Source: a virus
Lineage: Duplodnaviria > Heunggongvirae > Uroviricota > Caudoviricetes
IMG/VR virus record: IMGVR_UViG_2541047843_000008
Length of the DNA stretch: 40,690 nucleotides
Reading direction: 5' to 3' (one strand)
The translations under genes were made by a program, and so were the position numbers. Below the pieces are notes generated by a model. The model was not told the origin of the DNA. It saw nothing but the letters and a program-made list of their open reading frames with translations, and ran no database searches. How positions within the stretch are numbered: position 1 is the first letter of the stretch; each line of letters starts with the position of its first letter. Shown here piece by piece: positions 16,457-35,406 of the stretch.

Positions 16457-17001
16457 TATAATCCTCCGGGTAATCTGGTTCCTGCTGCTGCCCCGATTGG
16501 CGCAGGAGTGCTTTGAGTAAACGGACTCCACGTCCCACCAAACATCTGGTACGCACCGTATGCCTTCAGAGGCGCAGTGAGCAATGTTGTTGCTGCTCCC
16601 ACATTCCCCTGTTTACGGGCTGAACTGGCTTCTGCTTTATAGTTGGCAGCCTGAACCTGATAACCGTAAGCCTCGCGTTGCGCGTTATTCACCGTCGTCA
16701 GCGAATCAAGAGCGCCAAACTGGGCAGTGTCGCCAAATATATCCAGCGCGTTACCGGTAGATAAATCGGCGCCGGTCGCCCCCATTGTCGCCGCCTGTGT
16801 ACCAAGCCGCTGTCGGGTCTCTCTGCGCCGTTGCTCAGCTTCAGCGTTACCTCTGTTTATTGCATCATTTGCCTGAGCTGTGGCTATATCTGCGTTCGCT
16901 TCTGCAACCTTCGAGACATACTTTCCCTGTTGGTACTGGGTGTATGCCTGAATGCCACTCATGGCGAGCATTGCGCCACCAGCAATAACCGGATCGCACA
17001 T
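16456..17001 (-). CDS. Internal virion protein, T7 gp14-like
   Basis: About 180 aa, starts MC..., Ala/Gln-rich, C-terminal APIGAAAGT end similar to the T7 gp14 pattern as recalled. Confidence 0.55.
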   Translation of the reverse strand: MCDPVIAGGAMLAMSGIQAYTQYQQGKYVSKVAEANADIATAQANDAINRGNAEAEQRRRETRQRLGTQAATMGATGADLSTGNALDIFGDTAQFGALDSLTTVNNAQREAYGYQVQAANYKAEASSARKQGNVGAATTLLTAPLKAYGAYQMFGGTWSPFTQSTPAPIGAAAGTRLPGGL

Positions 17002-26069: not shown

Positions 26070-26146
26070 GTGGCATTAGCTCAGTCGGACAGAGCAACCG
26101 CCTTCTAAGCGGTTGGTCGCAGGTTCGAATCCTGCATGCCACGCCA
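26070..26146 (+). tRNA. tRNA-Arg (anticodon UCU, reads AGA), phage-encoded
   Basis: Cloverleaf read by hand: acceptor GTGGCAT/ATGCCAC, D-arm GCTC..GAGC, anticodon loop CUUCUAA, T-arm GCAGGTTCGAATCCTGC, discriminator G, CCA end. Confidence 0.9.
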
Positions 26147-31952: not shown

Positions 31953-32013
31953 CTTTACCCTCGCTTATCCACATAACTTATTGATTACATTGATAACTAA
32001 AAAGATCGTCGAT

Positions 32014-32361: not shown

Positions 32362-32438
32362 TTACCTCTGAGGTAATTAAAAACCACATAAGACATGAAA
32401 TCAATAGAGTTTACAATATTTTGTTACCTAACAGGTAA
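32362..32438. promoter_or_regulatory. Regulatory hub: two TTACCT-N3-AGGTAA palindromes (about 32362-32376 and 32424-32438) flanking an AACCACATA element
   Basis: Two perfect palindromes about 62 bp apart between the P-like stop and the DUF1064 start. Confidence 0.5.
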
Positions 32439-32475
32439 TTATCGAGGCGTAAAAAAATGCGCTATCGCGCTGGTA

Positions 32476-33252
32476 TTACTTGATAAATCCTGCCGCCTTT
32501 CCCCGCCTGTATTCCTCCATCAGCCACTGCGCCGGTGTTATTCCCCCAAGGGTGGCGGCGTTAGGCATGCACCCGAAACTTCGCCCTGGTGGATGGTAAA
32601 CGTCTCTCCCTGTGTCCGGAGGTGTACTCATGGGCTCTGGCTTTGCCTGTATGCTGATCACCGGATCGGGTATCTGCTGTCCGGAAGCCACCTTTTTCGC
32701 CCAATCATCGAGCAGCCTGCGCGCGTGTTTCTCAACCTCACTCTCGCTAAGCTGGCGCTGATACATTGCACGACGGGTATCACATACGACCCAGTACATA
32801 ACCGGATGCCGCCACGGGAATCTTTCGGGACCACCAGGATATAAACTTTTTTCCTTGCTGTACCGGTGAAACTCCGCCATCACATCGTCAATGGTGACGC
32901 CAAGAACCATCTTGCTGTCTTTGCACCACTTGATGAATTGCCCTGGCGACGGCCAGAACGGAGATTCACTGGCGCGGGCGTGGCGCATACCAGCGTTAAC
33001 CTGTTCCATTGTAGTGATCCCATTCTCCAGAAACGCAAGCATCCATTGCTTACGGAATTCATTAAGTTTGTTCTGCTCCCTTATGGTCGAAACGCTTGCA
33101 GGAAATGCAGCCTGTAACTGGACAAATAGTTCATTGAAAATTCTAGCAACCTGCTCCTTTTTGCCATTGCTGTCACGCCGCTCTTCATGCACAGCAACAC
33201 CATGCTCACGTAAGCGATCGTACTCATTGAGAAGTTCTGGAGTTGATTTCAT
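32476..33252 (-). CDS. Replication protein P-like (DnaB helicase loader)
   Basis: Long colinear similarity to lambda P as recalled: FPAS...NEFRKQW.LAF.ENGITTMEQVNAGMR.AR...PF.PSPGQF..WC. Confidence 0.8.
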   Translation of the reverse strand: MKSTPELLNEYDRLREHGVAVHEERRDSNGKKEQVARIFNELFVQLQAAFPASVSTIREQNKLNEFRKQWMLAFLENGITTMEQVNAGMRHARASESPFWPSPGQFIKWCKDSKMVLGVTIDDVMAEFHRYSKEKSLYPGGPERFPWRHPVMYWVVCDTRRAMYQRQLSESEVEKHARRLLDDWAKKVASGQQIPDPVISIQAKPEPMSTPPDTGRDVYHPPGRSFGCMPNAATLGGITPAQWLMEEYRRGKAAGFIK

Positions 33253-34066
33253 CCCACACCCCTTCTATCCAGTCAGTGTTATTCCAGTCAAGCTCATCGC
33301 TTTTCCCGGCATTTTTTGATTTTCCCCTGATATGATTTACGTGCCTGGCGAATTTTTGTTCCCACTGAACCTGCGTGAACACTTTGCCCTCAGCCATCCA
33401 GTAATCCCGGAATGCAGCAAGTTCAGCAGGTGTAAATTCCGGTTCCGGCAGGGCCGTTCCCCACAGCGCAGCACGCCGCCGAAAATCTGGCGACGGTAGC
33501 CAGCCATCTGTCATCGGAAATTTCCCGATGGGTTCACTCAGGCCATCCAGAAATTCAGGTTCTGCCACCTGCAACGGCGTACTGTTCGCTTCACTGGTCG
33601 GAGCACCCTCGCGCACGTGCGCTATGTGTGGGGTTTTATATATATCTTCCTCTTCCTCTGGTAACTCCTTTTGTAACGCTGTTGGCGTTACTTTTTGCGT
33701 TACTCGTTTTCGATGCTCTGCCACTCTTCTATTCGTAAGTGCACGTTTTTTCGATGATTCTCCATTATGTCGCTCAAAGTTTGGAAGAATTAGTTTGCCG
33801 TCATGATAAGCAAGCCATCCGACGCTAATGAGGGCGTCAGCAAATCCTGTAATAAAAGCGAGTCTATCAAGTACTCCTTTTGTAACGCTGCCAGCGTTAC
33901 CGTCTATTGTTTGCTGGTCAGCCCATGCCCATATACGAACCAGCTTTCCAAGAACAGCATCTGGATCAATACCCAGAATTTCTGCTATCTGAAAAATTTC
34001 AGGTTTATCAGGAGTGATAACTTCAACCTTAATCCAGCTGCTTGCCATAGGTTTCCCCTCTTGCAC
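33224..34066 (-). CDS. Replication initiator (O-like position), with internal origin-like repeats; start may be internal ATG near 34048
   Basis: Directly upstream of and coupled to the P-like gene; contains two copies of a 27-bp palindromic element. Confidence 0.55.
   Translation of the reverse strand: MQEGKPMASSWIKVEVITPDKPEIFQIAEILGIDPDAVLGKLVRIWAWADQQTIDGNAGSVTKGVLDRLAFITGFADALISVGWLAYHDGKLILPNFERHNGESSKKRALTNRRVAEHRKRVTQKVTPTALQKELPEEEEDIYKTPHIAHVREGAPTSEANSTPLQVAEPEFLDGLSEPIGKFPMTDGWLPSPDFRRRAALWGTALPEPEFTPAELAAFRDYWMAEGKVFTQVQWEQKFARHVNHIRGKSKNAGKSDELDWNNTDWIEGVWDEINSRTSQ
33665..33900. repeat. Two copies of a 27-bp element CTCCTTTTGTAACGCTGnnnGCGTTAC (palindrome GTAACGC-N5-GCGTTAC) plus an extra half-site; candidate origin iterons
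   Basis: Copies at about 33665-33691 and 33874-33900 lie in two different reading frames of the same gene; extra GCGTTAC at about 33696-33702. Confidence 0.55.
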
Positions 34067-34241
34067 TCTTTAGTGCACAAGCAAATTCATTACGATGGCG
34101 GTTGGCGCTATTCATTGCACATTCAACACATGTTCCGTTCAGAACATACCTTTCAGAGAGATGGCCGTGACGGCACCGCTTTCCTGTGAAATAGCGATTT
34201 AACCCGGCTTTTGCGGCCTCCATTCTGGTTACTATCTTCAA
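34029..34241 (-). CDS. Small Cys/His-containing protein between Cro-like and O-like genes (cII-position regulator candidate)
   Basis: CRHGH...CVEC motif; non-ATG start in ORF track, internal ATG near 34223. Confidence 0.35.
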   Translation of the reverse strand: MKIVTRMEAAKAGLNRYFTGKRCRHGHLSERYVLNGTCVECAMNSANRHRNEFACALKSARGETYGKQLD

Positions 34242-34340
34242 TTTTTCCGCCCCTTTTTGTTATTGATATTGGCTATTTTGCACAATTGGAAAATTTGATC
34301 AACCAGATTTGGTTTTTTATTACCTTTGAGGTACGAATAG

Positions 34341-34368
34341 ATATGAAAAGACCGCCGGGTGGCGGTCT
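34341..34368 (-). terminator. Rho-independent terminator immediately downstream of the Cro-like gene (tR1-like position)
   Basis: 8-bp stem AGACCGCC / GGCGGTCT with GGGT loop; U-run on the minus-strand side. Confidence 0.5.
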
Positions 34369-34389
34369 ACAGAGGGTTGTAGCTGGATA

Positions 34390-34620
34390 TCATGAGTAGA
34401 AGAAGTATGCCAGTTCTGCTTTTGAGCGCAGCCATTGTCTTGTTTTACAGGCTTTAAAAAGCCCATTCATCAATACCTTACCTGGCATTTTGCGCTTGCC
34501 TGTTAAGTGAGTCTGGATATAGTGACTCGTCGTTCCGGCTTCCTGTGCGAAGGCTTCACGCTCATCCGGAGTAAGTGCAAGCCAGTGCTTTTTGAAATCG
34601 AAATGTCCGTTATCGCTCAT
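34390..34620 (-). CDS. Cro-like HTH regulator
   Basis: 76 aa, HTH-like segment, divergent from the repressor gene across the operator cluster. Confidence 0.55.
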   Translation of the reverse strand: MSDNGHFDFKKHWLALTPDEREAFAQEAGTTSHYIQTHLTGKRKMPGKVLMNGLFKACKTRQWLRSKAELAYFFYS

Positions 34621-34656
34621 AGCTATTGCCTGATATTTATTTCAGATAATAAATAT

Positions 34657-34720
34657 TCACCCATAAGGTAACAAAAATCAAGGATAGTTACCTATGAGGT
34701 GCATTTACCTGTTGGGTAAT
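34657..34720. promoter_or_regulatory. Immunity-region operator cluster: three TTACC-N5-GGTAA-type palindromes between the divergent Cro-like and repressor genes
   Basis: TCACCCATAAGGTAA, TTACCTATGAGGTGC, TTACCTGTTGGGTAA at about 34657-34671, 34688-34702, 34706-34720. Confidence 0.55.
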
Positions 34721-34774
34721 ATTGCTTTAAATTGAATCATCTACTGATTCATATATGAGGCGATTTTCCAGAAA

Positions 34775-35359
34775 ATGAAAAGTATCCAGGACGTCCGCAG
34801 GCAAAATCTCAACGACTTGATCGACCGTGAATTCAATGGTGTTCAGACGCGGATGGCAGAAAAACTTGGAACTCAGGCAAATCTGGTAAACCGCTGGGCT
34901 CTTGGCAAGAAGGTTATCGGCGACCAGGTTGCACGAAAAATTGAAGCTGCCGCCAATAAACCCCGTAACTGGCTTGATATTGATCGTTCGCTTTCTCAGG
35001 AGGGTTTTCAGCCTGTCGGCCCGAGCGATATAGGTCAGCTGGCGGCTCACAATCTGGAACGCTGGATGAGCGAAAGCCGCGACCTTTCAACACAGGGAAA
35101 ACTTCACCGCGCATCCGGCGTCGCCCAGGTGACAATCAGCCGCCTGTTAAACAATGAGGTCAGCGTTTCCATTTCCACCCTGGAGAATGTTGCATCCGCA
35201 TTCGGGCGTCACGGATATGAACTACTGATTCACCCGCACGACCCTGCGACTATCAACTATGACCGCTCACGCTACGCATTGTTACCCGAAACCGAGAAAG
35301 CAAAGATCGAAAGTTACATTGAATTTGTCATCAACCAGAACGAAAAAAGCAAACAATAA
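34775..35359 (+). CDS. Repressor candidate with two XRE-type HTH domains and no LexA-like autocleavage domain
   Basis: HTH-like segments VQTRMAEKLGTQANLVNRWALGKK and LHRASGVAQVTISRLLNNEVSVSISTLENVASAFG; own terminator downstream. Confidence 0.6.
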   Translation: MKSIQDVRRQNLNDLIDREFNGVQTRMAEKLGTQANLVNRWALGKKVIGDQVARKIEAAANKPRNWLDIDRSLSQEGFQPVGPSDIGQLAAHNLERWMSESRDLSTQGKLHRASGVAQVTISRLLNNEVSVSISTLENVASAFGRHGYELLIHPHDPATINYDRSRYALLPETEKAKIESYIEFVINQNEKSKQ

Positions 35360-35380
35360 AACTATATTTTTCAGTAAGTA

Positions 35381-35406
35381 AGCCGCCTCATGGCGGCTTT
35401 TTTATT
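35381..35406 (+). terminator. Rho-independent terminator after repressor gene
   Basis: Stem AGCCGCC / GGCGGCT with 5-nt loop followed by 7 T. Confidence 0.6.

Follow-up and report, generated by a model that had tools for sequence, protein, structure and literature searches.

The 40,690-base pair (bp) stretch of tailed-phage DNA considered here (IMG/VR record IMGVR_UViG_2541047843_000008, hereafter the window) is 98-99% identical to two epsilon15-like podoviruses, the Escherichia phages TL-2011b and vB_EcoP_ZX5. On its minus strand lies a gene for a replication initiator, and within this gene a palindromic element with the core GTAACGC-N5-GCGTTAC occurs twice, which a first-pass annotation had proposed to be the origin of replication of the phage. 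The features of the locus are the following:

33224-34048, minus strand: replication initiator gene (274 amino acids; PHROG 2509, "replication initiation protein", expectation value (E) 1.6e-127)
33869-33900, minus strand: cluster A, with the perfect palindrome GTAACGC-tggca-GCGTTAC at 33882-33900, followed by AAAAGGAGTACTT
33661-33703, minus strand: cluster B, four heptamer half-sites with an exact 12-bp period (gene nucleotides 346-388), encoded in the linker (amino acids 116-130)
33645-33659, minus strand: homopurine tract, AGAGGAAGAGGAAGA on the gene strand, starting two bases past the last heptamer of cluster B
33634-33644, minus strand: AT-rich stretch, TATATATAAAA on the gene strand, continuing the purine tract
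32476-33252, minus strand: helicase-loader gene, homologue of lambda P, overlapping the 3' end of the initiator gene

The initiator is predicted to be composed of a winged-helix-like N-terminal domain (N-domain, amino acids ~10-90), a basic helix (96-118), a disordered linker (128-171), and a DnaT-like C-terminal domain (C-domain, ~177-247). Cluster A encodes an inter-helix loop of the N-domain, GNAGSVTKGV at amino acids 50-59, while cluster B and the purine tract are encoded in the predicted disordered linker between the two domains.

On the plus strand, the two copies of the element read ACTCCTTTTGTAACGCTGTTGGCGTTAC (33664-33691) and ACTCCTTTTGTAACGCTGCCAGCGTTAC (33873-33900); 25 of 28 bases are identical, and the starts are 209 bp apart. 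Allowing for up to two mismatches, GTAACGC-N5-GCGTTAC is present in exactly two places of the window, 33673-33691 and 33882-33900, as the first-pass annotation had stated, while a mean of 0.03 occurrences is expected from shuffled sequence and none of 100 shuffles reached two. Chance is thus excluded as the source of the two palindromes. The additional GCGTTAC half-site that had been noticed near 33696 is real and located at 33697-33703, and a fourth one, which had been missed, lies at 33661-33667 with one mismatch (GTAACTC on the plus strand, corresponding to GAGTTAC on the gene strand). From the earlier description as a 27-bp element, the existence of two similar copies can be retained; the repeating unit, though, is not 27 bp long but a 7-bp half-site phased at 11-12 bp, and the likeness over 27-28 bp results from a layout common to both places, in which a forward half-site is separated by 5 bases from a reverse one, and this by 4-5 bases from a second reverse one. 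On the gene strand, cluster B is GTAACGC-aaaaa-GTAACGC-caaca-GCGTTAC-aaaag-GAGTTAC, that is, two half-sites in one direction followed by two in the other, and the AAAAGGAGTACTT sequence beside the palindrome of cluster A contains a decayed third half-site (GGAGTAC). Apart from the clusters within the initiator gene, no further heptamer cluster was found in the window. GCGTTAC/GTAACGC heptamers amount to 15 in the whole window, with 3.8 expected from shuffles; ten of them are scattered singly outside the initiator gene without clustering (e.g., at 16748, 16844, and 35544), an excess that may reflect a k-mer bias escaping dinucleotide shuffles. No DnaA boxes are present near the element, the only perfect box of the window being located at 31965, and no Rfam family was detected within 32400-35400 (E up to 1).

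The distribution of the sites in relatives was assessed on 179 distinct gene 5' halves from IMG/VR and GTDB genomes, with sub-samples of 91 relatives of at most 90% amino acid identity, 40 lineages of at most 70%, 41 representative lineages, and 23 lineages of at most 70% that possess the loop peptide. A profile search yielded 10,942 protein clusters at 50% identity (E ≤0.001), 3,645 of them with E ≤1e-30; the family is found in Enterobacterales, Pseudomonas, Burkholderiales, phages of Xanthomonas and Ralstonia, Planctomycetota, Verrucomicrobiota (Akkermansia), and others. The first-pass annotation had advised looking for the same element in related prophages, and the equivalent of cluster B was indeed found in 171/179 relatives and that of cluster A in 170/179. 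In nearly all members, the exact heptamer occupies the same two places of the gene, at nucleotides ~149-200 (cluster A) and ~340-400 (cluster B). At 40 diverged loci, heptamer density is 13.1 per kb in gene nucleotides 130-450 as compared with 0.127 per kb elsewhere (118 kb of flanking DNA). Inverted half-site pairs are 12 bp apart (71 cases); for direct pairs, the spacing is 11 bp in 46 cases and 12 bp in 34. Spacings of 22 and 33 bp also occur, and in many relatives further half-sites lie 11 and 33 bp downstream of cluster A; 11-12 bp corresponds to one helical turn and the other distances to multiples thereof. Cluster A together with its spacer is 100% conserved among phages whose nucleotide sequences are 80-84% identical. 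Across the family, 220 to 287 bp separate the palindrome of cluster A from the point where the purine tract starts, and helical phasing between the clusters is only weak, for which reason no looping geometry is claimed. An extra perfect palindrome, GTAACGCtgcgaGCGTTAC, is present in a Rac-like prophage of E. coli 442/2 (L245, 1196-1214), where it precedes the initiator start codon by 14-32 nucleotides and adjoins or covers the ribosome-binding site; two other members (L128 and L118) are similar, while the window is devoid of such a site. This arrangement suggests autoregulation in some members.

The homopurine tract and the AT-rich stretch together form the sequence AGAGGAAGAGGAAGATATATATAAAA (33634-33659). 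On the promoter-distal side of the sites an AT-rich region with purine/pyrimidine strand asymmetry is thus present, and its polarity is as in lambda. For the 26-base stretch from 33634 (25 nearest-neighbour steps) the duplex free energy (ΔG) is -27.4, with a window mean of -35.1 (standard deviation 3.0), and tract plus AT stretch represent the least stable 25-mer of the initiator gene. The (AGAGGA)2 tract of the window is the local form of a family-wide tract, which is usually (AGAGA)4-5. In 30/41 representative lineages, a half-site ends 1-2 nucleotides before the homopurine tract, and in most relatives TA-rich sequence follows it. Arginine codons within the tract are AGA in 86/86 cases among these lineages, compared with 8% AGA in the N-domain, and the conserved peptide ALPEKRREEK is the translation of the 5-bp-periodic tract.

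Several observations were made in the surroundings of the tract. Relatives possess, 10-40 nucleotides past the tract and after the TA-rich tail, a recurring pair of C5-6 runs spaced by 3-6 nucleotides (CCCCCttaCCCCC; examples are L089, L208, L217, L211, L097, and L245), which encodes a proline-rich linker; the window retains only CCCCACAC of it, at 33623-33630. Just past the AT-rich stretch, at 33611-33622, lies a perfect 12-bp palindrome, GCGCACGTGCGC, that is not conserved in close relatives; in lambda, a palindrome is located to the right of the AT-rich region. The window also contains, at 26070-26146 on the plus strand, a tRNA-Arg with the anticodon TCT, which reads AGA; this codon is the exclusive arginine codon of the family tract, while the tract of the window itself encodes only Glu and Asp.

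That the element is conserved at the level of the DNA, as had been argued from the different reading of its two copies, is confirmed. Both copies reside in the one minus-strand gene in different frames, the palindromes starting at gene nucleotides 149 and 358, and they are translated into different peptides, GNAGSVTKG in cluster A and VTPTALQKE in cluster B; the product reads DGNAGSVTKGV around amino acids 50-59 and VTQKVTPTALQKELPEEEED at amino acids 116-135. Most members translate the DNA word as NAxSVT; in the window it is also read in another frame, as VTQKVTPTALQ. In the codon alignment of the 91 relatives, codon entropy collapses only at codons 50-59, 65-66, and 116-134, and at almost every other codon from 2 to 115 it equals the background; at the cluster B codons 116-130, synonymous sites are frozen. 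Codon choice was evaluated where the peptide G[ND]A.[SG]VT is present, in 23 lineages. There, Gly is encoded by GGT in 22/23 cases (background 22%), Asn by AAC in 23/23 (background 49%), Ser by AGC in 17/17 (background 22%), and Val by GTT in 23/23 (background 40%). Where the site is GTCACGC, the loop is GHA in place of GNA, from which it follows that part of the protein sequence is dictated by the site.

It is the sequence of the heptamer, and not its pairing, that is conserved. Among 332 inverted pairs in the relatives, one arm was altered and pairing broken in 121, both arms were altered in a non-complementary manner in 11, and compensatory changes were found in 4; direct repeats of the heptamer, which are incapable of pairing, are conserved equally well. 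By these data a hairpin function is excluded.

In divergent lineages, as judged from the sequences, the site is changed in both clusters together, along with divergence of the N-domain. One lineage (L190) has GTCACGC at all 7 sites, and an Akkermansia lineage has CCGTTAC in both clusters. In epsilon15 (L248), whose N-domain is 33% identical to that of the window, GTAACGC is replaced by GTCCGC/GCGGAC, with 9 matches as against 1.5 expected; each of two clusters (955-1006 and 1234-1274) contains four copies, two forward and two reverse. The upstream cluster is shifted to gene nucleotides 55-106, and the downstream one is followed by the same purine tract, CAGAGAAGAGAAGAGAAGAGAAGAT. The mosaic structure of these phages is informative as well. 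With BUCT554 and a Klebsiella phage, the window shares only the segment 33645-34048, comprising the N-domain plus the sites, and with an Actinobacillus phage only the segment 33325-33643, by which the mosaic joint is placed at the end of the purine tract. In Rac-like prophages, the same segment is swapped for a DUF1376 N-domain with repeats of its own at the equivalent position. In the relatives, the initiator gene is followed by P-like, IstB/DnaC-like, or DnaB helicase genes, and the C-domains vary, too; the only gene portion that is linked in cis to the sites at every locus is the N-domain itself. This supports the view that the N-domain and its sites are inherited as one mosaic module.

Concerning the initiator protein, the AlphaFold model shows a compact, helical N-domain with a β-hairpin (amino acids ~10-90), followed by the long basic helix 96-118. 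Fold searches with the N-domain returned generic winged-helix matches only; none of the Pfam models matches its first 120 residues even when E values up to 10 are allowed, and a search of solved structures by sequence gave no matches for the initiator. The C-terminal part is a DnaT single-stranded DNA-binding domain (Pfam PF17948, E 1.6e-18), and DnaT is also its only fold match (Foldseek: 6aeq/4ou6, TM score 0.9, 56-58% identity). Equivalence to full-length DnaT was rejected, since NCBIfam PRK02854 scored 92.7 bits at a cut-off of 201 and only amino acids 169-250 match. Membership in YdaU/DUF1376 was rejected likewise, with no PF07120 match at E up to 10 and a negative profile comparison with YdaU of E. 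coli K-12. The gene had been addressed as "O-like" before; it is an initiator gene with embedded sites, while homology to lambda O was not found (hhalign probability 0.2%; no O-family Pfam or NCBIfam match), so that it can be regarded as an analogue only.

The product of the adjacent gene 32476-33252 matches the Pfam family Phage_lambda_P (E 5e-56) and PHROG 109, "P-like helicase loader", and is 39% identical to lambda P (E 7e-50). Upstream of the initiator gene are a small open reading frame with no assigned function, a gene resembling cro, and a repressor-like gene in divergent orientation. The small open reading frame (34029-34241, minus strand; 70 amino acids; PHROG 1081), which overlaps the start of the initiator gene, has a CxHxH...CxxC pattern and might code for an accessory replication or regulatory protein; as compared by position, an open reading frame is also found there in BUCT554 and the Klebsiella phage. 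A strong hairpin of the terminator type, AGACCGCCACCCGGCGGTCT with a T-run after it, separates the cro-like gene (34390-34620) from the replication genes; it lies at 34349-34368 on the minus strand. The hairpin is placed similarly to tR1 in lambda, which implies that the initiator operon is controlled by antitermination or read-through.

In this scenario, the region 33634-33703, comprising cluster B and the purine/AT tract, is most likely the core of the replication origin of the phage, located inside its own initiator gene. The proposal of the first-pass annotation that the phage origin lies here is supported by every sequence-based test that was run, i.e., selection, phasing, tract, location in the linker, the P homologue, co-change, and the mosaic module. 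The core would most likely consist of the downstream cluster and the tract, and the upstream copy would be a separate accessory cluster; the whole is most likely a lambda-style origin with two site clusters in a non-homologous, undescribed initiator family. We infer the initiator to be the protein that binds the heptamers, the tract to be the site of unwinding, and this locus to be the place where replication begins. Specifically, the N-domain of the 33224-34048 product would recognize the heptamer GTAACGC, and half-sites which are one helical turn apart, both inverted and direct, would align several initiator subunits along one face of the DNA. Subunits would be assembled at cluster B and, 209 bp upstream of it, at the accessory cluster A, possibly bridging both; under the strain imposed by this complex, the neighbouring purine tract and AT stretch (33634-33659) would open. 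Recruitment of the host DnaB helicase to the opened DNA would then fall to the DnaT-like C-domain together with the lambda-P-like loader (32476-33252). For cluster A, bridging, copy control, or autoregulation are conceivable as accessory roles.

Several points weigh against this interpretation. Among the ~40,600 25-mers of the window, the duplex of tract and AT stretch ranks only 225th (top 0.6%) in instability. The cumulative GC-skew has its minimum near 34-35 kb, which is confounded by the divergent switch of transcription at ~34.7 kb. By counting exact heptamers, no cluster A is found in 7/41 representative lineages, and the diverged members L155 and L160 are wholly devoid of it; cluster A is therefore not indispensable. 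The co-change of site and protein derives from few lineages, and the Fisher p-values over the 179 genes ignore shared ancestry. The peptide rich in Glu, Lys, and Arg which is translated from the tract could have a role of its own at the protein level; the exclusive use of AGA for arginine argues against such a role as the whole explanation. A literature search found no binding or replication data for this initiator family. In that search, which covered the heptamer, the origins of epsilon15 and phiV10, DnaT-type phage initiators, and ydaU/oriJ, no description of the element was found, its coverage being incomplete and thus no proof of absence.

Three other explanations were weighed. The heptamers might be initiator sites for control only, acting in autorepression, as an intragenic roadblock to transcription, or in titration or handcuffing, with the origin located elsewhere. 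An operator role is made plausible by the extra palindrome over the ribosome-binding site of some relatives (at -32 to -14 in L245, with L128 and L118 being similar), and cluster A has no adjacent unwinding tract. A pure operator, however, would need neither the conserved purine tract 1-2 nucleotides after cluster B (30/41) nor the TA-rich sequence that comes next in most relatives; moreover, the position and polarity of cluster B mirror ori-lambda, and there is no other heptamer cluster in the window. Overall, a purely regulatory function appears improbable. Somewhat less credit still is given to the idea that the words are bound by another factor of host or phage, or are kept as recombination linkers between mosaic modules. 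It would fit the coincidence of the mosaic joints with the end of the purine tract, as well as the tract of epsilon15, which is unchanged beside a different heptamer; the tract is consequently no target of the determinant that gives the N-domain its specificity. On the other hand, it is only the N-domain that always accompanies the sites in cis, whereas the neighbours vary; with hosts ranging from E. coli to Planctomycetota and Akkermansia, one host factor of identical specificity is implausible, and DnaA boxes are missing nearby. Selection for recombination alone would not fix a phasing of 11-12 bp or a palindromic arrangement.

The least probable explanation, to which hardly any weight is assigned, is that the palindromes act as hairpins, be it as mRNA stem-loops, an antisense terminator, a DNA cruciform, or a single-strand initiation signal. 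A 7-bp stem is possible at each palindrome, and both copies are listed as terminator-like on the plus strand, the one at 33673-33691 being followed by TTTTT. Yet the ratio of 4 compensatory to 121 one-arm changes among the 332 inverted pairs and the equal conservation of the non-pairing direct repeats speak against it, the copy at 33882-33900 has no T-run, and there is no Rfam match. An intrinsic terminator, in particular, was rejected, because only one copy possesses a T-run, it is antisense to the gene, and the variation in relatives is non-compensatory. An origin core formed by cluster B and the tract is the preferred interpretation.

A more far-reaching reading is conceivable but rather doubtful, namely that a single, very large, and unrecognized class of phage origin-initiator cassettes extends across phyla and combines three properties unlike lambda. 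The recognition word would be nearly unchanged across phyla and would dictate part of the protein, the GNAxSVT loop being the translated site; the origin would be bipartite, one of its clusters lying within the sequence that codes for the DNA-binding domain and having a regulatory or architectural role; and the (AGAGA)n tract, invariant on the sense strand, may be more than an AT-rich melting region and could be a polypurine element. Such an element could capture the transcript of the initiator gene itself as a stable RNA:DNA hybrid, in the form of an R-loop or a primer, or could form triplex DNA. If this were true, the "transcriptional activation" of such origins would be explained in physical terms by the hybrid or triplex at the tract.

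From a practical point of view, heptamer clusters together with the (AGAGA)n tract would allow origins to be annotated by sequence in thousands of prophages and phages, among them epsilon15-like elements, Rac-like elements, and phages infecting Pseudomonas, Xanthomonas, Ralstonia, Akkermansia, and planctomycetes, the initiators of which are now labelled "primosomal protein I" or "hypothetical protein". The locus would also be an unusually clean case of an overlapping code, in which the gene of a putative DNA-binding protein contains the proposed sites of that same protein with measurable effects on codons and even on the peptide. In lambdoid phages, iteron sequences differ from phage to phage, with which the near-invariant recognition word across phyla is in contrast. 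The strictly homopurine tract would offer a testable handle on the opening of such origins, and a compact origin-initiator cassette that is found in prophages of many phyla could serve vector building.

Among known systems, ori-lambda is the closest in design. In both cases, the array lies inside the initiator gene, at nucleotides 346-388 here and 349-433 in the lambda O gene; the sites are dyad-symmetric, the array falls in the interdomain linker, and a P-type loader, 39% identical to lambda P, comes next. A purine-rich, AT-rich stretch follows the iterons on the sense strand (ACAAAAGACACTATTACAAAAGAAAAAAGAAAAGATTATT in lambda), and mosaic exchange points are located at the origin. In contrast to lambda, the initiator has no detectable sequence similarity to O and its C-domain is DnaT-like; 7-bp half-sites at 11-12 bp are found instead of four 18-bp iterons that are ~20-24 bp apart from start to start. 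Furthermore, a second conserved cluster is present ~200 bp upstream within the coding region of the DNA-binding domain, and the proposed unwinding tract is strictly homopurine, with (AGAGA)n or (AGAGGA)n as its sequence.

The relation to Rac prophages is twofold. Some Rac-like prophages (E. coli 442/2, O157:H7) have a YdaU N-domain that is 66% identical to that of the window, and they carry the same heptamers and tract. For the Rac prophage, an experimentally active origin, oriJ, is cited in two papers (PMC11014345, PMC3945230). The YdaU gene of K-12 Rac (L247, 1057-1148) contains four ~AAGCAGATGTTCAA repeats of its own at gene nucleotides 353-444, a position equivalent to cluster B; these repeats are candidate iterons of oriJ. 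It differs from the window in its DUF1376 N-domain (match of K-12 YdaU to PF07120 at 2.7e-26), which is unrelated by hidden Markov model and profile comparison, in its repeats, and in its loader, YdaV, which is DnaC-like and not P. oriJ was considered as experimental support and set aside; with N-domain and repeats of the K-12 Rac differing, the oriJ experiments do not validate the site of the window.

DopC/DopE, a domesticated lambda O/P-like pair (Brezellec et al. 2017, PMC5509034), resembles the present system in having a DNA-binding N-domain plus a DnaT C-terminal motif, with a P-like protein encoded next to it. The N-terminus of DopC was reported to be of the O-like HTH_36 type, no iterons were found, and dopC was concluded to be no longer an origin (PMC5509034). 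Unlike in that pair, iterons and tract are intact in the window, and the setting is that of a phage. A wider comparison extends to plasmids and to a phage of another type. The initiators of iteron plasmids (RepA, π, TrfA) are of the winged-helix type and bind phased repeats beside an unwinding element, the plasmid iterons being 17-22-bp direct repeats outside the rep gene; in phage SPP1, the origin oriL lies within the gene of its initiator G38P.

Summarizing, the overall concept of a lambda-style origin within the initiator gene is already known. What differs from the lambda type is the non-homologous, very large, and unannotated initiator family, the presence of two clusters, the recognition word shared across phyla, and the strictly homopurine tract; the system is also distinct from K-12 YdaU/DUF1376 with Rac oriJ, from DopC, and from plasmid Rep proteins.

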